A DNA stretch of 64,000 nucleotides from Candidatus Nomurabacteria bacterium (GTDB taxonomy: Bacteria; Patescibacteriota; Minisyncoccia; Phycocordibacterales; UBA918), in assembly GCA_023898585.1 (NCBI GenBank), contig CP060229.1:381912-445911 (forward strand), given 5' to 3'. The notes beneath the pieces are model-generated. The model saw only the letters and a program-made list of their open reading frames with translations, had not been told where the DNA came from and did no database searches. The stretch's first letter is position 1, and the number at the start of each line of letters is the position of its first letter. This document shows positions 3,623-51,858 of the stretch, piece by piece. Both the position numbers and the translations under genes were made by a program.

Positions 3623-4765
3623 TTGCTGGTCTCGAAAGTAAGGCTTGAACAGCGTATACTTAAGGCACGTATTATGTCTTCGGTTCTTTCAAGAATTCTT
3701 CCGCCTCCGGCTTACATAACAATGCCGTCTGTTGGAGTTGATATTTCTGACACTTCTTTAAAATACATCGCTTTCGAACCAACCGTTCGAGAGGGGATTG
3801 ATCGTAAGTTGAAGCTGTGGGGAGACATTTCCATACCAAACGGTATCTTGCAAAGAGGGCAACTCGATAAGCCTGAACAGCTAGTTATCGTGCTCAAGGA
3901 ATTCAAATCAATAACAAAAGCGGAATTTGTCACTGTATCTTTACCGGAAGAGAGAGCTTATTTGTTTGAGACAACAATAAAACGTGATGTCCCTCTTAAA
4001 GAAATAAGAAGTTTATTAGAATTTAAGCTGGAGGAGAATGTTCCGATTCCTTCCAAAGATGTAATTTTTGATTATGTAATTATTCCGGGCGATTCCGAGA
4101 CGAGAACGATGCAGATTGCCGTCGCAGCTTATGGTAAAGAAACAGTTTTGAAATATTACGATGCTTGCAAGGAAGCCGGGCTTCGTCCGATCTCCTTTGA
4201 GGTCGAAGCGCAGGCCATGGCTCGCTCAGTCATATCAAATGACATAAGTGGAGCAGTCATGTTGGTGGATTTCGGAAAAACAAGAACCGGCATCGGGATT
4301 GTCTACAAAGGAATTTTACTCTACACTTCCACCATCGATATCGGCGGTGATCAATTATCACAATCGCTACGTAGCATTTTAGGGTCCGATGTGGCTGAAT
4401 CCAGCTTAACTAAAATAAAAAATACGGAAGGTTTGATGCGTGGTGTGGATTCTTCCGATGTTCACGATGCTTTGCTTAGTGTCGTTTCTATCATCAAAGA
4501 CGAACTGATCACCAGAATGCAGTACTGGCATTTGCGCAACGGCAACAGTGAAGAAAGGAGGATAACATCAATTATGATGTGTGGTGGAAGCGCAAATATG
4601 AAGGGTCTGCCTGCATATCTTACCGAAACCATCGGCGTTCCTTGTGTCAGAGGTAATGTCTGGGAGAACACTTTTTCTCTTGATAACAATGTTCCTCCGA
4701 TCGATAAGTGGCATTCTTTCGGGTATGCGACAGCGATCGGTCTAGCGCTTAAAAAATTCGTATGA
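3623..4765 (+). CDS. pilM: type IV pilus assembly protein PilM (actin-like ATPase)
   Basis: Actin-like fold motifs (LVDFGKTRTGIGIV, DIGGDQLSQ). Followed by pilN/pilO-like genes with overlapping stop/start codons. Confidence 0.7.
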   Translation: MLVSKVRLEQRILKARIMSSVLSRILPPPAYITMPSVGVDISDTSLKYIAFEPTVREGIDRKLKLWGDISIPNGILQRGQLDKPEQLVIVLKEFKSITKAEFVTVSLPEERAYLFETTIKRDVPLKEIRSLLEFKLEENVPIPSKDVIFDYVIIPGDSETRTMQIAVAAYGKETVLKYYDACKEAGLRPISFEVEAQAMARSVISNDISGAVMLVDFGKTRTGIGIVYKGILLYTSTIDIGGDQLSQSLRSILGSDVAESSLTKIKNTEGLMRGVDSSDVHDALLSVVSIIKDELITRMQYWHLRNGNSEERRITSIMMCGGSANMKGLPAYLTETIGVPCVRGNVWENTFSLDNNVPPIDKWHSFGYATAIGLALKKFV

Positions 4766-33794: not shown

Positions 33795-34391
33795 TTAATC
33801 AACGGTAATGGCGCAGACGTTTCCGGCGCAAGCGGGTTTATGCTCCTGTTGTTTTAATATTCCCTTGGCCAATAGAGCACTGTATATTTTACATCCCACG
33901 CAAATACCAAACGCAGTTTCCATAAACATGAAAGCAAGACATATTCCGCAAATAATCATGTTTGGTAATCCCTGGACGCCAAAGACAAACAATAATAACA
34001 ACATCACTCCGGACAGCATGAGCCCAATGCCCCACGCGAAACGCTTTTGAATAGCGCCTACATACTCAGGTTGTTGTTTTCGTACGACCAGGTCAGATAA
34101 GCGGGTTATTGGTGAGAATTTGGTTCCGACTACTACTTTCATCAAGAAATCAAAAAAGAAAATCACCACAACTATTTTAATATATAAAAAGTCCCGTAGG
34201 TAAAAAGCTTGAAAGAACGCAAATATTCCGAGCGCGAACATAATCCCCGCGCCGGCGCGGATTGCTCGTTCATTTAATACCGGATAAGGTGCTGGTTGAC
34301 CGTATATGGTCAGTCCGGGAATGATTTGGCCGTACCGGAAAAAGCCGTATTTTTTTAATTTTTCAATCATAAACGATCTGAATGATACCAC
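33795..34391 (-). CDS. hypothetical membrane protein with Cys-rich C-terminus
   Basis: Four TMs. C-terminal CAGNVCAITVD. Confidence 0.4.
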   Translation of the reverse strand: MVSFRSFMIEKLKKYGFFRYGQIIPGLTIYGQPAPYPVLNERAIRAGAGIMFALGIFAFFQAFYLRDFLYIKIVVVIFFFDFLMKVVVGTKFSPITRLSDLVVRKQQPEYVGAIQKRFAWGIGLMLSGVMLLLLFVFGVQGLPNMIICGICLAFMFMETAFGICVGCKIYSALLAKGILKQQEHKPACAGNVCAITVD

Positions 34392-34677
34392 GTTTCTATA
34401 ATATTTAAGGAAAAACTGAAAAAGGTGGATACACTTCTAAAGAAAGGTTTACTCATGCGGGATGAACGGTACAAAATAAATGAAAGGTTCAACCTATCTT
34501 TGCAGTAACCCGACAAATAGGGACAGGGACAATAGAATCTTAAATCACTTGGCATAATATTTTATACCCCGGCCACTAACACTGTATCCTTGATTGGAGG
34601 AGGAGACAGTTAGGCTGATGATCTCGAGTATACACTGCATGTAATAGGGAGTCCAAAGAACAATCAGAACACACTTT

Positions 34678-34754
34678 TACCTAGAGTATTGTCCCTGTCC
34701 CCATTTCCTTTACCTAGAGTATTGTCCCTGTCCCCATTTCCTGTCCCCATTTCC
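34678..34754. repeat. tandem repeat (2.4 copies of a 32/33-bp unit tacctagagtattgtccctgtccccatttcct)
   Basis: Units at 34678-34709 and 34711-34742 plus the partial gtccccatttcc. An inverted copy of the core (gggacagggacaa) lies at ~34518-34531. Confidence 0.8.
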
Positions 34755-34851
34755 GATTTAAGCCACCGCCTAAGTTGCAGCCGAAGTTGGGGTTTTAGGA
34801 GTTAGTTGGACAGCAGTGGAGTCTGATGTATCGAAAAAAGTAGGACTAATT

Positions 34852-36387
34852 TTAGTTATCCGGCGTGACTTTTTTCTGTAAGTGAATATAGAGCACTGCA
34901 TTTCCAGAATGTACATTATTCAGACCAAGTTCTTCATAAGTAAAGGTTCTATCTTCGATGACATCAAACTTTTCTTTTATTAAATCAGAAAAATATTCTG
35001 CTAGGGTGTGAACTGGATACTCAACGACAAATGTTCCGTACAAGTTAATACGTATGTATTCTTTACCATTACGCTCAAAAACTACCTGATTTTGTTTGTC
35101 GTCAGGATGGGGAACTATTACGAACAAATTGCCCCCAGGCTTAAGTTTTTCGTGAACCTTGCTGAGGGAAGAGTCGATGTCGTTGTTGTAATGTAAAGAA
35201 AATCTACTGACAGCCAAATCGATACCTCCTTCGTTTAAACTATTGTTTTCATAATCACCAATTTGTAAATCAACATTTTCTAGTTCTGGATGGTCCTTTA
35301 ATCTTTCACGGAGTACCTTAAGGATATTTTTTGCGGGGTCAATAAGAGAAATGTGCTTTGCCCCATTAGAAATGTAAAAGTCTAGATTTGGCGCGTCTCC
35401 GCAACCAATATCTGCAACGTCTGCACTTTGTATAAGGGGACGGATTTTTTCTAGCATGTATGTCGTTGGTTTTTCGGCGTCTGGATTCTCTGTAAAAAAT
35501 TTCTTTGCCCCCTCGGTGTAATCTGTAGGTGCCGAGTCATAAGCAGTCTCTTTTTTACATAAAAGAAGAAGGTTGTGGAATCCGCCTATAATAGGACGAG
35601 TAAAAATGTCTACTTCAGGGTTGGGAATTGCTAAATTTGTATCTACTATCTCTAGTCCATTTTCTTCAACCCAGTCTTTAGCCTCGTCGTCAGTTTTCCA
35701 CTCCTTGAAGTGAAAATTTTTAAATGAGTCAATTTTCCCTATAGGGATAGAGAGTATAAAGTACGATCCATATTTTGCATTTGTTACTTGAGTCCTGAGG
35801 TATTTATCTGGGTCAGACGCGTGTTCAATCGAATCAAGAAACACGTAGGCGTCACTGTCGCCAAGATACTCAAAATCGTTCATGTTCTTTACTTCGAAAG
35901 ATATGTCTTGTGTTGGAATATGGTTTATGTCCAAAATTACTCTAGTAACCTTTTCTCCGACACTTGAACCCTCAACTAGATTTATCTTTCTCTCGGTAAC
36001 AAATTGTTCGTCAAGCATGTAATCTGTTGGTGCTGAATAACCACAATCAGTTATAGATTTGGGGTTAATTCGTTTTAGCCACTCGAAAGTGGTCATGTGT
36101 CTCACTCTGTGATAAGAACCATTCACATGCATACAGTGATAATTCGCTAAACTCGTTGCAGTTTCGTTGTATATAGAATTATCAGCGCTATTAGTAAAGA
36201 TCATTGCGTAATTATGTGCAGCCATTCGGAATTCTTCAAAATCAACATCCAGTGCACTACAAGCGTCTGTTATCTGTTTAGTCAGATTGGGTTCTTCAGA
36301 TAATGCCCGAATCAAAAAAGCATCTACATCATCAGACATTTTTTGTTCATCGATTTTGTTTTCATTGTGTAACAAACCCTCGTTCAT
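34852..36387 (-). CDS. tandem double SAM-dependent methyltransferase-fold protein (511 aa)
   Basis: C-terminal half has motif I VADIGCGDAP and LKPGGNLFV. N-terminal half has degenerate ITDCGYSAP...YVFLDSIEH...GSYFILSIP. Confidence 0.6.
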   Translation of the reverse strand: MNEGLLHNENKIDEQKMSDDVDAFLIRALSEEPNLTKQITDACSALDVDFEEFRMAAHNYAMIFTNSADNSIYNETATSLANYHCMHVNGSYHRVRHMTTFEWLKRINPKSITDCGYSAPTDYMLDEQFVTERKINLVEGSSVGEKVTRVILDINHIPTQDISFEVKNMNDFEYLGDSDAYVFLDSIEHASDPDKYLRTQVTNAKYGSYFILSIPIGKIDSFKNFHFKEWKTDDEAKDWVEENGLEIVDTNLAIPNPEVDIFTRPIIGGFHNLLLLCKKETAYDSAPTDYTEGAKKFFTENPDAEKPTTYMLEKIRPLIQSADVADIGCGDAPNLDFYISNGAKHISLIDPAKNILKVLRERLKDHPELENVDLQIGDYENNSLNEGGIDLAVSRFSLHYNNDIDSSLSKVHEKLKPGGNLFVIVPHPDDKQNQVVFERNGKEYIRINLYGTFVVEYPVHTLAEYFSDLIKEKFDVIEDRTFTYEELGLNNVHSGNAVLYIHLQKKVTPDN

Positions 36388-36992: not shown

Positions 36993-37108
36993 TATTTTGT
37001 ACGAGAGGATAGTTCTAAATTCCCATTAGTGTCCATTTGGCTAGAAATGAAATGATTAGGAATTACAAAGCTATTTGGTTTCAATTACCGTTTGGGCACT
37101 TACTGTCC

Positions 37109-37177
37109 ATGGGGTGGAACCAGTTTGAGGAAATTTGTTTGGAGTGGTTGGAGGAGGCGAGGGAGGTGCTTGTATAA
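37109..37177 (+). CDS. candidate conserved small ORF (22 aa, MGWNQFEEICLEWLEEAREVLV); a paralogous copy ends at 38769
   Basis: Two copies differ mostly by synonymous or conservative codon changes, but both lack a clear SD. A cis-element explanation is equally possible. Confidence 0.25.
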   Translation: MGWNQFEEICLEWLEEAREVLV

Positions 37178-37181
37178 AAAA

Positions 37182-37212
37182 CCGCGTCCTTTGCCATAAG
37201 CTAGGGACGCGG
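37182..37212 (-). terminator. hairpin ccgcgtcc/ggacgcgg plus U6 on minus strand, directly after the 449-aa gene
   Basis: 8-bp GC stem, 15-nt loop. The minus-strand RNA is followed by UUUUUU. Confidence 0.55.
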
Positions 37213-37223
37213 CATTTACCTCA

Positions 37224-38573
37224 TTATTCGACGTTAAGGAGTTGCATCATTCGATCATAGTCGTTTTCCAGCACTTTTTCCTTGATGGGTCGGTGCGTTG
37301 GGTCAACTTCCACGCGATAACCTTGTACGAGACATGTCTCTCGACTTCCGACACCGTTGGTAAAGTCGGGTTCGCCCACCAGTGCATACGCATTTGCACT
37401 CTTGGGGAGTACAGCCTCCACTTCCTTGCGATCGTAGCGAAAGATCGGAACAGGGTAGTTCGAATCGGTATAGAATCGTACCGCTTCTCCCACCTGTTGC
37501 ATGGATTTCACCAGGAACTCTGGTTCGTACGTATCAGCCCGAGCACCTTTCTTTGGCACTTGTGTGAACCAGGTCTCATCCGGCAGTTGCATGAGCACCA
37601 TGAGGCCTCCTGGCGCTTGGTCGAGTCCGGTTGGCTCCATGAGTTCACGCCAGTGCTTTAGTAGCAACTTGCGTGCATCAGGACCTTTGCGGATTTCACC
37701 AGCATCACCCTCACGGACGCCAAACATGCGTGTTCCATCACCCCATCCATGGGGTCCAATGTCACACGACCAGGTTGGGAGACGACCATAGTCATTGCCC
37801 TGGACTTGGGAAATCGCGCCGATACTCAACAGGTGGGCAAAGGCAAAACCTTCTTCCACCTCCTGGTATACGTAGCTACAGCTTGCATCACCAGGTTGGA
37901 TGATGTATGGGTTCATCGGACCACTGCTCGGATCATACGCGTGATGCTTCTTGTAGAACTCGATTGCCAGCCTTGCGTGCTCGGTCAAATATTCAGAAGC
38001 CCGAGGACCGAGTCGTGCACGCAGCACCGGATCGACAAATGCTTCCACAGCCGAAAGGATTGAGAGGAAAGGGTACTGGTACCGACGAAGGTATGTCTCC
38101 AGTTCCACCACCTCGACCGGACCATAGTGTCCACTTTCGAGTTTGTGGAACTCGTCGATCGTGATGCGACCACCTTCTCGTCCGCGAGTCTTGTCGCTTG
38201 TTTGCCACTTGTAGGCGTCGACAACACCACGTTCGGTTGCCATCGGGCCAACGCCGTGGGCAACGAGTAGGATCTTGATGCCACCTTTGCTCATCCCTAC
38301 GTACTCGGCAGACATCGTGGTGAAGTACTGATCCCACGGGGTCGGGTTGGAAGGGTCGTAGCCATTCAGGTGTTTCGGCGGAGTTGCAAGCCGTGCATCG
38401 ACCACGTCAAGCATGGTGCCGACATGACCTTTGTCTCCAGCGAATCTGGAAGCTTGCCGGAAGGATGGCACGAAGCCATCCATGTGGAAGAAGCTCATAG
38501 CTTCACCAGTTGCGGTTTTTTCAGACATTAGTAGTCTCCTTGTTTCCGTTTTTGGATTTGAAGGAACGGACAA
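37224..38573 (-). CDS. hypothetical protein (449 aa) in GC-rich island
   Basis: Long ORF in a locally GC-rich stretch, with many spurious antisense ORFs on the + strand. No family recognised by eye. Confidence 0.6.
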   Translation of the reverse strand: MSVPSNPKTETRRLLMSEKTATGEAMSFFHMDGFVPSFRQASRFAGDKGHVGTMLDVVDARLATPPKHLNGYDPSNPTPWDQYFTTMSAEYVGMSKGGIKILLVAHGVGPMATERGVVDAYKWQTSDKTRGREGGRITIDEFHKLESGHYGPVEVVELETYLRRYQYPFLSILSAVEAFVDPVLRARLGPRASEYLTEHARLAIEFYKKHHAYDPSSGPMNPYIIQPGDASCSYVYQEVEEGFAFAHLLSIGAISQVQGNDYGRLPTWSCDIGPHGWGDGTRMFGVREGDAGEIRKGPDARKLLLKHWRELMEPTGLDQAPGGLMVLMQLPDETWFTQVPKKGARADTYEPEFLVKSMQQVGEAVRFYTDSNYPVPIFRYDRKEVEAVLPKSANAYALVGEPDFTNGVGSRETCLVQGYRVEVDPTHRPIKEKVLENDYDRMMQLLNVE

Positions 38574-38773
38574 TGTGTCCGGCGAAACAATACAATATAA
38601 AGATTTATTTGTCTACATTAAAAAAGTCCATAGTGGAACTAAAAAGTCATTATTTTATTCTGTTTCCCAGATATCTAGGACAGTAGGGCACGTACTGTCT
38701 CTCGGGTGGAACCAGTTTGAGGAATTGTGTATTGAATGGCTTGAAGAAGCGAGAGTAATTTTTGTATGAAAAA

Positions 38774-38826
38774 GCCACCCTTCCGCCGAAACGAAAGGGT
38801 CGCTTTCAGTTTCGTGGTTGGGTGGC
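38774..38826 (-). terminator. hairpin gccaccc...gggtggc plus U5 on minus strand, directly after the 116-aa gene
   Basis: 7-bp outer stem with structured loop. The minus-strand RNA is followed by UUUUU. Confidence 0.4.
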
Positions 38827-38827
38827 G

Positions 38828-39178
38828 TCAGTCAGGGCGGCGGCCTTCTTTCCAGCCACCGCATATGGACTTGTAACCAGGCGGGAACGCCTCGTTGAAC
38901 GTGTGACCACCGTGTTCTTCCAGGGCGCGTTGGACTTCCCAGCACACTTCGTCCCGCTGTTCTTCGGTCATGTTGATGAACTGCATGGTGTAGACTCGCG
39001 CCATTGCGTGAATGTCGGGCGACGTTTCGATACTGGGGTCAGTCAGGAAGTTGACGGTAGTGGTGTCGAGTCGCTCGAAGCTCCACCGTTTCTGAAATGC
39101 TGTCTGTACAGCGTGGCGAATGGCTTTCATCTGCGGTACTTCGTCCGCAGTGAAACCGGTCACATCGACAATAGGCAT
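38828..39178 (-). CDS. hypothetical protein (116 aa), possibly tautomerase-superfamily-like (Met-Pro start)
   Basis: MPIVDVTGF... with Pro at position 2, ~116 aa. GC-rich codon usage. Family assignment is weak. Confidence 0.3.
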   Translation of the reverse strand: MPIVDVTGFTADEVPQMKAIRHAVQTAFQKRWSFERLDTTTVNFLTDPSIETSPDIHAMARVYTMQFINMTEEQRDEVCWEVQRALEEHGGHTFNEAFPPGYKSICGGWKEGRRPD

Positions 39179-39189
39179 CGTGTCCTCCT

Positions 39190-39723
39190 TCAGGCCAGGA
39201 AGTTCCGGCCGTCGAGCTTGTCATTGCTGTTTTCGAATGCGTAACGACCGAGCGCCTTGAGTGAGTCAGCGGTCATCCCGGAGATGAGCTGGTCAATACA
39301 CGGTTTTTCGCCCGAGAAGCCGACCACCAGTCCGTGTCGTTTGACGCCGCCCCAGTAGGGCGTGTCGCCCGAGAACAGCAGGTGAGCGTTCGAATCGGTC
39401 TGCCCGTCATCGTTGCGTCCCTGCCAGAGCTGGAGCGCCTTGCAACGGGCGATGTCGTCGAACGGGTACTCCCAGTTATCCTTTTCACCCACGCTCTCTT
39501 CATAGAGCAAGTGCGGGTAAATCGGGTAGTTGGGCCAGTCGGGGTAGTCTTCCGATCGCACGTCGTCCATCGACGGAACGAGGATGACGAGATGACCTTG
39601 GCGACGCTTCATGGCGTCGGCGTAAGGGCCTTCTTCGGCGAATAGTGTGACCGAAAACACCTGCTTGGCCACCTGGGCGGCCAGTTGCGGGGTGAGGTAC
39701 TTGGGGGTGAGCAATTGGCTCAT
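39190..39723 (-). CDS. GlcG/DUF336-family protein
   Basis: GGVKRHGLVVGFSGEKPCIDQLISG resembles the DUF336 core motif. The likely start is the Met at 39723 (the ORF-track frame extends to 39816). Confidence 0.5.
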   Translation of the reverse strand: MSQLLTPKYLTPQLAAQVAKQVFSVTLFAEEGPYADAMKRRQGHLVILVPSMDDVRSEDYPDWPNYPIYPHLLYEESVGEKDNWEYPFDDIARCKALQLWQGRNDDGQTDSNAHLLFSGDTPYWGGVKRHGLVVGFSGEKPCIDQLISGMTADSLKALGRYAFENSNDKLDGRNFLA

Positions 39724-39879
39724 GTCGTTTCTCCACTTGGTTGCGAATTGTGATTGCCGAAATGGCGGGAACTTGTAGATCGTAGTGATCCATAAGCTGG
39801 CAAAAAAGTATAGCAAAAGTCAATTTTTGTAAATACTAACTCGACATTAGTGAAACTAGAATCTTCTGTCTGACCTGGG

Positions 39880-41634
39880 CTATGCAGAGATTTTTTCCTC
39901 TATGATGCTCTTCAAATCAGCAACGTCGTCGCTAACGTATGATTCTGGTAGGTGAGAAGCAGATTCAATTTCGACTTTTGCTTCCTCGTACTTTTTATTG
40001 TCTAAGTAGTGTCGAGCTTTTTCGTAATGCCATATTTGAGAGGCAATATTTTTATTTTTAGTTGATGCAAAGCGTTCTATGGCTTTTGTGTAGTACGCAT
40101 CTCCTTTGTTATTTTTGCCAGTTCGGAAACAAAGCAGTCCTTTTGTTGCTGAAAGTGATGGTGGCAGCTCATCGTCTTTATACTTTTTGAGGATATCCTC
40201 AGCTTTTTTAAAATGTCCGCCTAAAATGTAAGCGTGAGCTAGGTTGTTTTCAATGTAAGGCATGTCAAAACCAAGCTCTAGTGCACCTTCAAGTAGTTTT
40301 ATTGACGCTTCGTAATCCTTGTCTAGTGAAGAAAGTATAAAACTATAGTCAGGGTAAACTTCACGGATGCGAGGTTCTATTTCTAGAGATTTCTCGAAAT
40401 AAGTTTTTGCATTGTCGTATTGCTTCATCCTCCCTAGGTATGCTCCTCTTAGGTAAAAACCAAAAGCATCCTCTGGGTGAATGCGTAATATGAAGTCGGC
40501 TGTTTCTTTTAGTTTATCTAAGTCGTCTCTGTCAACGGCTGATCTCCCTATGTTGTAAGATGATTTTAGGTGATCAATTTTGATATTAAGATTGCGCTTG
40601 CCGGAGATGTGTTTTTTGAATAAAGAGGCAGCTTTTTCGAAACAAGCGTCACCTTGAGTGTTCAGACCAACTGATTTATAGCAAACTCCAAGATTGTTGT
40701 ATAAAAGATCGTTGTTTTTCTCTTCTTGTATCTTCTTTTGGTACCAGGGTATCGCTTCTTCGAAGTTTCTTAGCTCCATTAGTAGCCAACCAATCTTATG
40801 CTCCCAAACGTGGTCGAGTATCAACTGACTATGTTTTGCCTTTACGAGTGTTTCTAAGGCTTCAGCGTATTTTTTTCCGTTCACGTACAGATAGGCCAGG
40901 TTTTGATAACTGTGTATATATCTAGGATCTATTTCAATAACACTCTTGAAAAGACCTTCCGCATCTCCAGGGTTGCCAGACCGTAGATGGGCCACCCCAA
41001 GGTTATTTATCGCGTGTATATAACGGTTATTTATAGATCTTGATCTTTCAAAATACGTTACTGAACCTTCTATGTCTTTCTTAAGGTTTAGGAGTATAAA
41101 CCCATGAGTGTTGATAACTTCGTAGTCTGCTGGATCTTTTTGTTCAGCTTCATTTAAAACGCTGATGGCTTCCTCTACATCACGATTTTTTTCATCTATT
41201 AAAGCTTTAAAAATGGCATACTTATGCAAAATATCTGGGCGACGATTGGTAACTTCTAGTACCTTCCTGAAAAATAGGTTTGCTTGGTCGATGTCCTTGT
41301 GTGATATGCATGCAAAGAGTATTTTTTCGTATGCCGGTAAATGGTCAGGTTTTAAATCTATCGCCATTAGGAAGTAGGTGATAGCACGTTTGTAATTACC
41401 TTTCATTAGGTACAGATCGCCAACCTGCATTAGAGTCTGTGGTGCCTCGCGTTCACTAAGTCTTTTCTTGGCGAACCTCATTTGCTCATTTATGAACTTA
41501 TGTTTAAACTTGTGTCCGAAAGAGTTGACGGGAGAAGCGTCTGTAGAGGAAATAGGAGTATGAGTTGGTCGTGATTTTGCAGCACCAATAACCGGTTCGA
41601 TGTAATCGTTGGTATTTTGGGTCTGAGTAATCAT
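39880..41634 (-). CDS. TPR-repeat protein (584 aa)
   Basis: Multiple 34-residue TPR-like repeats (W/LG/Y...A...F...A...P patterns). 4-bp overlap with the upstream kinase gene. Confidence 0.7.
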   Translation of the reverse strand: MITQTQNTNDYIEPVIGAAKSRPTHTPISSTDASPVNSFGHKFKHKFINEQMRFAKKRLSEREAPQTLMQVGDLYLMKGNYKRAITYFLMAIDLKPDHLPAYEKILFACISHKDIDQANLFFRKVLEVTNRRPDILHKYAIFKALIDEKNRDVEEAISVLNEAEQKDPADYEVINTHGFILLNLKKDIEGSVTYFERSRSINNRYIHAINNLGVAHLRSGNPGDAEGLFKSVIEIDPRYIHSYQNLAYLYVNGKKYAEALETLVKAKHSQLILDHVWEHKIGWLLMELRNFEEAIPWYQKKIQEEKNNDLLYNNLGVCYKSVGLNTQGDACFEKAASLFKKHISGKRNLNIKIDHLKSSYNIGRSAVDRDDLDKLKETADFILRIHPEDAFGFYLRGAYLGRMKQYDNAKTYFEKSLEIEPRIREVYPDYSFILSSLDKDYEASIKLLEGALELGFDMPYIENNLAHAYILGGHFKKAEDILKKYKDDELPPSLSATKGLLCFRTGKNNKGDAYYTKAIERFASTKNKNIASQIWHYEKARHYLDNKKYEEAKVEIESASHLPESYVSDDVADLKSIIEEKISA

Positions 41635-47184: not shown

Positions 47185-48933
47185 ATGCAGAAAGAACGGC
47201 CCAGGACATGTCTAGCTAGTGCACGAATCAGTAGCCAACAACAAATGGCTGGTGAGAGTCTTGATGATCAGGTGCGAGTTCTCAAAACTACCGCTGAACA
47301 TAAAGGACTTAAGATACTACCTGACGGTGAGGTAGCCGTTGAGATATTCACTGGTACAAAACGTCGTCCTGTGTACGAACAGCACATTCAGTACATCAAA
47401 GACAATCCGGGCAAGGTTGGTTACTATCTAATTCGATACATTGATCGCTTTACTCGTGGTGGTGCCTCTGTCTATCACGACATGAAAAAAGAACTTTCCG
47501 ATTTGGGAGTGATGCTCATTGATACAAACGGAATCATCCAAGAATCACGGAACATGCCGGAATTGGCTGAGATGGGTTTTGAATATGAGTGGAGTGTCGA
47601 ATCACCAAGTGACATGACTGAGGTGATGATGGCAACAACAGCCAAACAGGAACGCGACACAATTCTAAAAAGAACAATTCCTAAGCAGATTGCTTATACT
47701 CAAAAAGGATTTCAGATAGGTCGCCCTGACGATGGAATGATGAACTATCGTACTCAAGTGGGGACACAGATACGATTTGTGCAGGTCCCCGATCCAGAGC
47801 GCGCTCACTTCATAAGAAAAATATTTGAGCTACGGGCAGAGAATAAACACTCTGATCAAGAGATACTTCATATTGTGAATGAAGACATGGGGTTTCGTAC
47901 TAAAAAATTCCATCGCTGGAATAAAACCCACACAGAGATTATCGGTGAAGGAGGTGGCCACAAGCTTCATATCAAGCAGCTACAGCGCATTTATCAGCGT
48001 TTAGCGTATGCAGGTGTACTTTGCGAGAAATGGACGCACCACAAGCCAATTAAGGCGCAATGGGACGGCTTAGTATCAATTGAGCTATGGAACAAAGCAA
48101 ACCGTGGCAAGATTTTCATTAAGGAGTACGACAATGACCTGTTGGAGATTCTGTACGACTATAAAACCGAGAAGCCCGTCTATCAACGACTTCGATACAA
48201 CCCAGAGTATCCTTTCAAGTGTGTAAGTTGTCCGCAGTGCAACAAGCCACTTAAAGGCAGTGCACCACGCGGGCGCGGCGGAACATACCCACGCTATCAC
48301 TGTGAACGTGGCCACACTTCATTTACGGTCAGTCGGCAACAAATGAATCAGACTGTCGAAGCATTTTTGGACAGTGTCGATTATGACGATGATTATCTGA
48401 AAGTTTTAGAAGAAGTGCTGGTCCGTAAACTACGACAGCGACAGAAAGATATTGTGCAGGAATCAGAGAAGCTAAACGAACGAGTCACTTTATTAAAGAG
48501 CCAACAGAAGCAGGTTCTAGGTACTTTAATCTCAACTGAGAGTCCGACGGTCAAAGTCATGCTTGAGAAAGAATTGGAGACCATTGTTGCTGACATCAAA
48601 AAGGCTGAATCAATTCGTTTCTCTGTCGATCTCACTGAAGGCAATATTACTGAGTTGGTGAGCTACGCACGAAAGATAGTGGAATCACCGAAAAAAGCCT
48701 TGATAGATAAAGACAATCCACTCCGACAGAAGCAGTTATTCAAGCTTTTCTTCGAGGACCTACCAACCTATACAGAATTGGATAGTGGAACCGCTAAAAA
48801 ACGCTTTCTTTTCAATAGGAAATGTATTGTCGAGACCCCTGAAAACAGGGTGTCTAGACAGAAGGGGCGACTACTGGGAATCGAACCCAGATTTCCGGTA
48901 CCACAAACCGGCGTAATAGCCGTTATACAATAG
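47185..48933 (+). CDS. large serine recombinase (resolvase catalytic domain, recombinase domain, zinc ribbon, coiled coil)
   Basis: Catalytic ARISSQQQ (cf. YARVS..Q) and IDRFTRG. Zn-ribbon CVSCPQC...HCERGH. The last ~23 codons overlap tRNA-His on the opposite strand. Confidence 0.75.
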   Translation: MQKERPRTCLASARISSQQQMAGESLDDQVRVLKTTAEHKGLKILPDGEVAVEIFTGTKRRPVYEQHIQYIKDNPGKVGYYLIRYIDRFTRGGASVYHDMKKELSDLGVMLIDTNGIIQESRNMPELAEMGFEYEWSVESPSDMTEVMMATTAKQERDTILKRTIPKQIAYTQKGFQIGRPDDGMMNYRTQVGTQIRFVQVPDPERAHFIRKIFELRAENKHSDQEILHIVNEDMGFRTKKFHRWNKTHTEIIGEGGGHKLHIKQLQRIYQRLAYAGVLCEKWTHHKPIKAQWDGLVSIELWNKANRGKIFIKEYDNDLLEILYDYKTEKPVYQRLRYNPEYPFKCVSCPQCNKPLKGSAPRGRGGTYPRYHCERGHTSFTVSRQQMNQTVEAFLDSVDYDDDYLKVLEEVLVRKLRQRQKDIVQESEKLNERVTLLKSQQKQVLGTLISTESPTVKVMLEKELETIVADIKKAESIRFSVDLTEGNITELVSYARKIVESPKKALIDKDNPLRQKQLFKLFFEDLPTYTELDSGTAKKRFLFNRKCIVETPENRVSRQKGRLLGIEPRFPVPQTGVIAVIQ

Positions 48934-48938
48934 TCGCC
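48866..48938 (-). tRNA. tRNA-His (anticodon GTG) with encoded G-1
   Basis: Manual fold. Extra 5' G pairs with discriminator C. Anticodon loop tTGTGgt. T arm GGGTTCGATTCCC. Confidence 0.75.
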
Positions 48939-49417
48939 ATAAATCGTTCTTTTTCTTTCGAGTAATGATGAACGAGATGGTGGCAATTGTGGCACAACCA
49001 AGCCAAATTTTCAATGCTATTGTTGGAGTGGTTCTCATCAATGTGGTGAACTGCTAATACTCTAGTATCTCCAGAGTTGCATAGTTTACATTTTTTAGGA
49101 GTTTTACCTCGTGAAAGTAAGCTCCGATACGAATGATTACCCGACTTCCAATTAGGGTGCTTTTCTTGAGAGAATTCCCGATTCCTCCACTTTGTTTGGC
49201 AAGACTTGCCACAAAAGAATTTTCCACTTTTTGATCCTTTGAGAGCTTTGGGTGATTTGTATATTTCTTTGTTGCAATAAGAACAGTTTACATATTTACC
49301 AGTTCGAGATGCTTCATGTTGACAGGAGGAAGAACAGTACTTGCCCCAACCTCTCTTTAACCAAGAGGGCTTAGCGTAAAAATCAACCTTACACTTTTCG
49401 CATTGTTTTATAGGCAT
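48923..49417 (-). CDS. HNH endonuclease with N-terminal zinc-finger repeats
   Basis: C-terminal LAVHHIDENHSNNSIENLAWLCHNCH HNH motif. Multiple CxxC pairs. The 3' end overlaps the tRNA-His 5' end by 16 nt. Confidence 0.65.
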   Translation of the reverse strand: MPIKQCEKCKVDFYAKPSWLKRGWGKYCSSSCQHEASRTGKYVNCSYCNKEIYKSPKALKGSKSGKFFCGKSCQTKWRNREFSQEKHPNWKSGNHSYRSLLSRGKTPKKCKLCNSGDTRVLAVHHIDENHSNNSIENLAWLCHNCHHLVHHYSKEKERFMATIV

Positions 49418-50544: not shown

Positions 50545-51858
50545 ATGAAAATCGAGAGTATTCGCAAACGTGATGGATCGATCCAGCCCTTTGACATTAA
50601 AAAGATTGTTAATGCCATCACCAAGGCCCTCAATGAGACAAGGGAAGGTGGTCAGAAAGAGGCGGAAGATGTCGCGGAATTGGCCTATGAAAAAGTTGTC
50701 TCCATGTGTGTTGAGGCAACGGAAGCCGACCCGGAAGATCCGATGGCGCAGAAGTGTATAGATGGCAGTCCTTCAGTGGAAGAAATTCAAGACTTGGTAG
50801 AGCAAGCCTTGATGGAAAAGGACTACTACAATACAGCCAAGGCCTACATCATTTATCGTAATGCGCGTAAGAAAATGCGTGAGCGAGATATCTTTGCAAA
50901 GCGTCAAAATCTCAAACCATACGAATATCCAGAACTGTACGAATATACCGATTCAATTCGCCATTCATATTGGGTACATACTGAGTTTAATTACACTTCC
51001 GACGTACAAGATTTTCACGTTAATGTCACGGAAGCGGAAAGAACCGCTATCAAGCACTCGATGTTGGCGATTGCTCAAATTGAAGTGGCGGTAAAGACAT
51101 TCTGGGGAGACATCTATAAAAAAATGCCCAAGCCTGAGATCGGAGCGGTAGGGGCCACTTTTGCCGAAAGTGAAGTGCGCCACACTGACGCTTATTCACA
51201 TTTGTTGGAGATACTGGGGCTCAATGATGAGTTTACCGATATTAAAGATATCCCGGTCATTCAAAAACGAATGGATTATCTCGAAAAGGTCATTGATTTG
51301 TCACGCACGGAGGAAGATAAGCAGTATGCTCACTCAATGCTACTTTTTTCGCTTTTCATCGAACATGTTTCTTTGTTTTCACAATTCCTGATTATGATGT
51401 CGTTTAATAAGCATAAAAACTTGTTCAAAGGCATCAGCAACGCGGTTGAAGCCACTTCGAAGGAGGAACAAATTCACGGCATGTTTGGCATTGATGTCAT
51501 CAACATCATAAAAGAAGAGCACCCTGAGTGGTTTGACGATGAATGCAAAGAACTGATTGTGAAGTCCTGCGAAGAAGCCTACGAAGCCGAGTGTAAGATC
51601 GTGGACTGGATTTTTGAAGATGGGGAATTGGACTTCTTACCGGCTACTAACGTGAAAGAGTTTATAAAAAATCGCTTGAATAACTCACTCGCTTCGATCG
51701 GTCTGCCTCGAATATTTGAAGTTAGTGAAGCCTTGCTTGAAGAAACCGACTGGTTTGACAACGAAGTGATAGCGACAAAGCACGTAGACTTCTTCAACAA
51801 GCGATCAATAAACTACAACAAACGGTCGTCAAGTGTCACCAGTGACGATTTGTTTTAA
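50545..51858 (+). CDS. nrdB: class I ribonucleotide reductase beta subunit with N-terminal ATP-cone
   Basis: N-terminal ATP-cone (IRKRDGSIQPFDIKKIVNAITKA). Ferritin-like di-iron motifs EVRHTDAYS and EEQIHGMF. Confidence 0.8.
   Translation: MKIESIRKRDGSIQPFDIKKIVNAITKALNETREGGQKEAEDVAELAYEKVVSMCVEATEADPEDPMAQKCIDGSPSVEEIQDLVEQALMEKDYYNTAKAYIIYRNARKKMRERDIFAKRQNLKPYEYPELYEYTDSIRHSYWVHTEFNYTSDVQDFHVNVTEAERTAIKHSMLAIAQIEVAVKTFWGDIYKKMPKPEIGAVGATFAESEVRHTDAYSHLLEILGLNDEFTDIKDIPVIQKRMDYLEKVIDLSRTEEDKQYAHSMLLFSLFIEHVSLFSQFLIMMSFNKHKNLFKGISNAVEATSKEEQIHGMFGIDVINIIKEEHPEWFDDECKELIVKSCEEAYEAECKIVDWIFEDGELDFLPATNVKEFIKNRLNNSLASIGLPRIFEVSEALLEETDWFDNEVIATKHVDFFNKRSINYNKRSSSVTSDDLF

Follow-up and report, generated by a model that had tools for sequence, protein, structure and literature searches.

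Related Systems

In the accessible text of Di Nocera et al. 2013 (PMC3733652), RAYT-like genes that lie between long terminal inverted repeats (TIRs) of a non-REP kind are named TIRtrons, and the proteins that they encode are called TIRYTs. Many of these TIRs share the sequence GGGGWSAS, and some of them form moderately abundant singles, dimers and clusters. As far as the accessible text of two later papers goes, most TIRYTs belong to TnpA-Y1 subclass 2.1 (Quentin et al. 2018, PMC6006769), which corresponds to the Group 1 RAYTs of Bertels et al. 2017 (PMC5581495). In the literature searched, just two papers use the names TIRYT or TIRtron, and there was no report linking TIRYT or RAYT to Patescibacteria and no biochemical work on any TIRYT.

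The repeat tract described here, located in a stretch of 64,000 nucleotides that was analysed as a whole (the window), is very probably a gene-deleted TIRtron relic, in which a RAYT-like Y1 (HUH) transposase gene has been deleted nearly entirely and its repeated ends were left. The likeness to TIRtrons and TIRYTs comprises the transposase of ~220-240 aa with a Y1/HUH domain and a tail ending in ..GRPRK, as seen in the intact relatives of the window element; the long non-hairpin inverted repeats around the gene, which abut or overlap its ends in a layout shared by the window and 11 intact loci; the GGGGWSAS sequence within the TIR (here GGGGACAG); and the moderate copy number of the TIRs, which are also dispersed as singles, dimers and clusters. 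Besides these similarities, the window copy differs in having no functional gene and in its host, a CPR bacterium annotated as Candidatus Kaiserbacteria. Moreover, neither the core made of two half-sites (TGTCCC TGTCCCC) nor the half-copy stutter found systematically at the outer ends is mentioned in the accessible text of the TIRtron and TIRYT papers.

Comparing with REPtrons and REPIN-RAYT systems (E. coli TnpA_REP, 4ER8; Pseudomonas REPINs), the Y1 fold is related, and inverted repeat copies also flank the gene and are dispersed intergenically; however, the unit of the present family forms no palindromic hairpin, has no GT[AG]G at a hairpin foot and is apparently at low copy number, and the family protein is only distantly similar to TnpA_REP, with an extra C-terminal tail. 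REP-type elements count tens to hundreds of copies per genome; here, one cluster was seen in the 64 kb of the window, and in other genomes the exact core was seen on one to three contigs. A hairpin REP was also ruled out by folding, as six units taken as single-stranded DNA give z-scores of -1.25 to +1.1, and the unit consensus has no GTAG/GTGG foot. The window element resembles a MITE in being short (240 bp), gene-less and bounded by inverted ends that come from a transposase-bearing parent by internal deletion, but no target-site duplication is evident at its flanks, it is a single copy in 64 kb and its parent is of the Y1/HUH and not the DDE type. Regarding IS200/IS605, these elements share the HUH/Y1 catalytic superfamily, although their ends are subterminal hairpins in direct orientation instead of long inverted repeats.

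Structure of the Repeat Tract

The tract is flanked on one side by a DUF4395 gene (33795-34370, minus strand) and on the other by a methyltransferase gene of 511 aa (34852-36387, minus strand). The initial annotation gave it 460 bp, which holds when counting from an upstream GTG of the DUF4395 gene; public assemblies start this gene at the ATG at 34370, and with that start the intergenic tract spans 34371-34851 and measures 481 bp. The inverted and tandem repeat structure claimed for it is real, as confirmed by repeat finding and by shuffles. A perfect 33-bp tandem of 2.0 copies occupies 34676-34741 (Tandem Repeats Finder gives the end as 34742), the same program finds a 13-bp tandem of 2.2 copies at 34727-34754, and the 20-nt arm at 34515-34534 is inverted with respect to those at 34687-34706 and 34720-34739, each pair being 95% complementary (19/20). 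With up to three mismatches, the 20-mer TATTGTCCCTGTCCCYATTT occurs three times in the 64-kb window against 0.01 expected, a number reached by 0 of 100 shuffles; all three occurrences are confined to the repeat tract, the motif being absent from the rest of the 64 kb. A weaker test with a 13-mer and two mismatches was not significant by itself. The core belongs to the GTCCCTGTCCC-type cores, and its presence had been recognized correctly, with coordinates that were 2-3 nt off, as gggacagggacaat is actually located at 34520-34533.

From left to right, the left TIR has one core copy on the minus strand (34515-34534; AAATAGGGACAGGGACAATA on the plus and TATTGTCCCTGTCCCTATTT on the minus strand), which aligns with the left TIR of the intact loci L024 and L030. 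This core contains GGGACAGG, whose form in the intact family is GGGGACAG, that is, GGGGWSAS; the left copy differs by one change in the motif (AGGGACAG), and the complementary strand of the right-hand cores has GGGGACAG. The linker and head of the left TIR (34535-34563, minus strand, GAATCTTAAATCACTTGGCATAATATTTT) are the counterpart of ..TGTGTCATAAT.. found directly 5' of the transposase start in intact elements. The part was set side by side with the 11 intact loci, and the alignment to L024 is 36/46 identical here; the plus-strand reading is ..TTGGCATAATATTTT in the window versus ..TGTGTCATAATTT.. in the intact elements.

The alignment to intact loci then places a pseudo-gene at 34564-34667 (plus strand), a 104-nt remnant of a TIRYT (Y1/HUH transposase) gene of ~669 nt. 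It is followed by the right TIR, also on the plus strand, which begins with the head AACACAC and the linker TTTTACCTAGAG (34668-34686, assigned by comparison with intact loci) and continues with core copy 1 and its tail (34687-34708, TATTGTCCCTGTCCCCATTT CC). A second 33-bp unit of linker, core copy 2 (34720-34739) and tail (34709-34741) is a perfect duplicate of 34676-34708, and a partial third copy of half-core and tail (34742-34754, TGTCCCCATTTCC) closes the element, forming an outer-end stutter as at many array ends of the family. Concerning the 2.4 tandem copies counted in the initial annotation, there are indeed two full units, and the third piece repeats the final 13 nt of a unit instead of the initial 13. 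The surviving TIRs are then one unit at the left and two full units plus a half unit at the right, in a gene-less element of ~240 bp with inverted ends.

Probable Remnant of a Transposase Gene

The window aligns position for position with an intact element, through the left TIR, the start, the last ~16 codons, the stop and the right TIR array, and the distances from core to start and from core to stop equal those of the intact loci. At the 5' end, the intact ATGCCACG.. has become ATACCCCG.. in the window, with a degenerate start ATA at 34564-66; from 34564, the window reads ATACCCCGG against ATGCCACGN in intact elements, a short match of 10/13. The 3' remnant (34621-34667) encodes ..GSPKNNQ where intact genes encode ..GRPRKN and a stop. 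Its last ~16 codons, ending at 34667, read GGGAGTCCAAAGAACAATCAG compared to the intact GGGAGACCNAGAAAAAATTAG (encoding GRPRKN and the stop), and the stop itself has degenerated to CAG (34665-67) from the TAG of intact genes. Over the last 45 nt, aligned without gaps and with the register fixed by the stop codon, 25-26/45 positions are identical to L024, L030 and L035, and the score of the anchored 3' stub is reached at just 2-3 of 127,912 window positions (empirical P ~2e-5). No homology is detectable for the 44 nt in the centre of the pseudo-gene (34577-34620), a protein-profile search with the stub alone was not significant, and tblastn of the 64-kb window found no TIRYT. A reading of the pseudo-gene on the minus strand (..GRGIKYYAK and a stop) was also considered and ruled out, as the profile and anchored comparisons place the gene on the plus strand.

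The comparisons with intact elements show how the tract is built and that its two gene stubs and two TIRs are homologous to theirs; the protein family to which the gene belonged is also established. The gene has shrunk from 669 to 104 nt (~565 nt gone), with the loss of both start and stop, and the stub lacks the HUH and Y regions, represented in intact relatives by PNHWH and RYxEQNP. Since start, stop, HUH and Y regions are all missing from the stub, the window element is a relic and not a functional member of the family. With no transposase gene anywhere in the 64 kb, it is most likely inert, but it could still serve as a substrate should the ~1-Mb genome encode an intact TIRYT at another place. 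As a TIRtron relic, the locus would be an ordinary dead mobile-element remnant, not to be read as an island boundary, an operator or an RNA.

Transposase Family

The 222-223-aa ORF of the intact loci matches Pfam Y1_Tnp (E 1e-19 to 1e-20), reaches 70-74 bits with the NCBIfam model of REP-associated tyrosine transposase, under the model cutoff of 80, and just 22-28 bits with that of IS200. Using the TIRYT reference sequences of Additional file 5 of Di Nocera et al. 2013 (PMC3733652), the CPR protein is 44% identical over its full length to RB2408 from Rhodopirellula baltica (E 3e-70) and 43% identical to Gbem_2474 from Geobacter bemidjiensis (E 8e-66), both TIRYTs, with an alignment that covers the C-terminal tail ending in GRPRK. 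The identity with E. coli TnpA_REP is 22% (E 5e-08). Among solved structures, this protein (4ER8) is the closest both in sequence and in the comparison with the predicted fold (pLDDT 85), with the ISDra2 and IS608 transposases next.

With a cutoff of E<=1e-30, the family numbers at least 6,627 homologues, and it is abundant in Patescibacteria. Among the best 120 of these at least 6,627 proteins, all have 221-225 aa, bar two shorter and four longer ones (198-242 aa), and the named members come from Parcubacteria or Patescibacteria. The TIRYT/TIRtron family is little studied, yet common in these ultra-small CPR bacteria, and with ends that carry a well-defined two-half-site core and a frequent, stereotyped stutter, it provides a concrete substrate for studies of non-hairpin DNA recognition by this branch of HUH enzymes. 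In L024, L030, L035, L057 and others, the TIRYT C-terminus is GRPRK(N/Y), an AT-hook-like motif. The last TIRYT codons and the stop lie inside the TIR head (AAATATTAG AACACA), so that the gene end and the element end overlap.

Distribution of the Repeat Unit

The initial annotation had named a core found nowhere else as what would speak against it; the exact 20-mer TATTGTCCCTGTCCCYATTT was instead recovered from 80 further stretches of DNA, which are nearly all patescibacterial (CPR). An exact-match scan of GTDB, with a single genome for each species, gave 23 of these stretches where chance would give ~2, and a scan of JGI metagenomes gave the other 57; viral contigs gave zero exact matches of the 20-mer, and the tract has no plasmid similarity. 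With few exceptions, the named hosts belong to Patescibacteria (Saccharibacteria, Paceibacterota, and Kaiser-, Taylor- and Azambacteria). The matches in the Roseivirgaceae and Methylovulum bins lack the extended unit and resemble the expected chance matches.

The 20-mer is the core of a unit of ~47 nt (consensus aaaattanancacanntttnnnaataaTATTGTCCCTGTCCCCATTTnc), in which the head AWAYTAnnnCACA is followed by a linker of ~9 nt, the core TATTGTCCCTGTCCCCATTT and the tail, and at 11 loci inverted cores or arrays ~740 bp apart flank the 222-223-aa ORF. As these loci were found with the 20-mer itself, the conservation of the exact core across lineages is partly an ascertainment effect. Four TIRYT loci found by protein alone (L110-L113; 62-68% identity to L030) have the same architecture, including the outer-end stutter, with a related but diverged core (e.g., TATTGTACTTATCCCCGTTT); from such divergence within a preserved architecture it follows that the TIR co-evolves with its protein, as reported for REP/RAYT pairs.

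Elsewhere, the exact core is present on one to three contigs per genome, several genomes having two or three. Solo units are intergenic in 91% of cases and have no orientation bias toward neighbouring gene starts, and the idea that they are portable promoters was ruled out by this lack of bias. Among the intergenic solo cores, a contig end is found on the head side in 25/69 and on the tail side in 8, an excess indicating that many solo units may be TIRtron ends severed by assembly breaks. TIRtron repeats also account for recurrent assembly breaks in CPR metagenome bins.

At the window locus, Logan short-read contigs from several samples (L004-L007, L011-L017) end within 34622-34713. With k=31, the 33-bp repeat accounts for the break at 34713, and the breaks at 34650-34655 are not fully accounted for; the sole single-nucleotide polymorphism seen in 32-37.5 kb is at 34625, in the pseudo-gene.

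Relics, Arrays and Stutter

Other loci have lost the gene to different extents. The C-terminal remnant alone lies between the TIR pairs of L029, L035, L027, L073, L082 and L091; the gene is frameshifted and internally deleted in L068 and L081; L101 retains the stubs of start and end, as in the window; and almost nothing is left between the TIRs of L096 and L040. The deletion end-points vary from relic to relic, which speaks for separate decay of each rather than for a single derivative that spread. The relic of L029 (JBLHGD010000008.1, an Azotimanducaceae MAG; 4270-4610), with four cores and a gene remnant of 59 codons, lies in a bin labelled as Gammaproteobacteria, a placement due either to horizontal transfer or to a mis-binned CPR contig.

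A total of 114 arrays contain one core in 90 cases, two in 15, three in six and four in three, with periods of 20-78 bp. An extra half-core with tail, like that of the window, is present at 15/98 distinct array ends, and the internal units are mostly headless, beginning at variable points of the linker and finishing at the same tail. In addition, L026 has an independent 33-bp duplication with the same boundaries as that of the window. Either replication slippage or an enzyme that repeatedly cleaves and rejoins the DNA at the tail could account for both arrays and stutter; likewise, the perfect 33-bp and 13-bp duplications of the window would be either recent replication slippage or footprints of transposase activity.

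The outer-end stutter is seen in L110-L113 and in L024, L029, L033, L047, L053 and L062, always ending at the same boundary. In L035 (3815-3946), L073 (2362-2448) and L082 (3210-3794), the 3' end of the transposase gene and the TIR are reiterated beside another copy, from which it follows that the duplication units can extend into the gene.

Proposed Mechanism and Mobility in trans

In the mechanism proposed for intact elements, the transposase would recognise the repeated TGTCCC/TGTCCCC half-sites and would nick and rejoin the DNA close to the outer CATTTCC boundary; such nicking and rejoining could spread solo units and generate the arrays of variable period and the half-copy stutter. A wider proposal, for which the chances appear rather low, is that CPR bacteria host a large and long-lived TIRYT-TIR system analogous to REPIN-RAYT, in which a strongly conserved, probably domesticated Y1 transposase would still act on two-half-site units. 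The arrays and stutter at CATTTCC would then be footprints of cleavage and rejoining, and gene-less pairs of the window type would be live non-autonomous substrates in a ~1-Mb genome.

Regarding the window element in particular, it is unlikely to be a live non-autonomous MITE- or REPIN-like element, that is, a gene-less TIR pair mobilised in trans by an intact TIRYT elsewhere in the genome, with the perfect tandem duplications as products of that enzyme. Such a reading would agree with the recurrence of short gene-less inverted TIR pairs (L040, L096, L101 and L029), with the several genomes whose cores lie on two or three contigs, with the same-boundary duplication that arose independently in L026 and with the 100% identity of the window's 33-bp duplication next to a heavily decayed gene stub. 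However, there is one copy in 64 kb, the varying deletion end-points fit independent decay and not the spread of a single derivative, and slippage explains the array periods of 20-78 bp equally well. Moreover, the DUF4395 protein of this locus is on a contig of 994,774 bp, and the records of the 120 closest TIRYT proteins place not one of them there, which is a weak test.

Two suggestions of the initial annotation touch on this point. The proposal of a miniature inverted-repeat element comes close, as the relic has no gene and derives by internal deletion from an element that had a transposase and inverted ends; however, one copy is seen in 64 kb, and its mobility in trans is putative. Meanwhile, an iterated binding site is plausible if understood as putative repeated recognition cores of the transposase, and not as an operator for the neighbouring genes.

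Genomic Context of the Probable Relic

It is very improbable that the tract is the left boundary or attachment site of the island that carries a serine recombinase beside tRNA-His, as had been considered from its position, with membrane-protein genes of conserved appearance on one side and, on the other, a block of mosaic composition that extends as far as this recombinase. No tract sequence recurs near tRNA-His or the recombinase gene, and blastn-short of 48750-49100 and of the tract, each against the window, found no sequence linking the two. In 11 contexts unrelated to one another, the motif instead accompanies Y1 transposase genes, belonging to the ends of a Y1 tyrosine transposase element, which is another element type. 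In addition, no empty-site strain was found on either side, and a search of viral contigs with the island's primase-polymerase gave no relative. Look-ups from the MscL side and from the methyltransferase side gave just near-identical strains (>=99.97%), all with the island and in the same arrangement. The next relatives have DUF4395 homologues at most 78% identical and no conserved synteny, being uninformative on the junction.

In relatives at ~72-78% identity (L041-L044), DUF4395 lies directly after a csoR-type repressor gene, the two forming an operon, and beside ftsZ/ftsA. In the window, csoR is found ~10 kb away, next to a copper ATPase, and DUF4395 is by itself behind the relic. At the end of the mosaic block, the large serine recombinase ORF (47185-48933, plus strand) runs ~70 nt into tRNA-His (48864-48937, minus strand), whose other end is overlapped by an HNH/TRASH ORF (48923-49417, minus strand). 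The att site is possibly inside tRNA-His, and the region 47185-49417 has no repeat elsewhere in the window.

The probability is close to nil that the tract is an array of operator or activator sites or an RNA element controlling the downstream DUF4395, as could be imagined from its location 5' of this gene and from a weak sigma-70-like match between the arms on the minus strand, since Rfam gives no match at 34300-34900 even at E<=1 (at the gathering score, tRNAs alone are matched in the whole window), single units fold no better than shuffles, DUF4395 of relatives is expressed behind csoR in the absence of such repeats, and solo units elsewhere are not biased in orientation toward gene starts.

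Other features of the window lie at some distance from the relic. A block of ~3 kb (37000-40000) has a GC content of 0.51-0.53 within a region of ~0.38-0.43, and its ORFs at 37224-38573 and 39190-39816, both on the minus strand, have no Pfam match. Further along, a gene for the small subunit of ribonucleotide reductase (50545-51858) carries an N-terminal ATP-cone domain.
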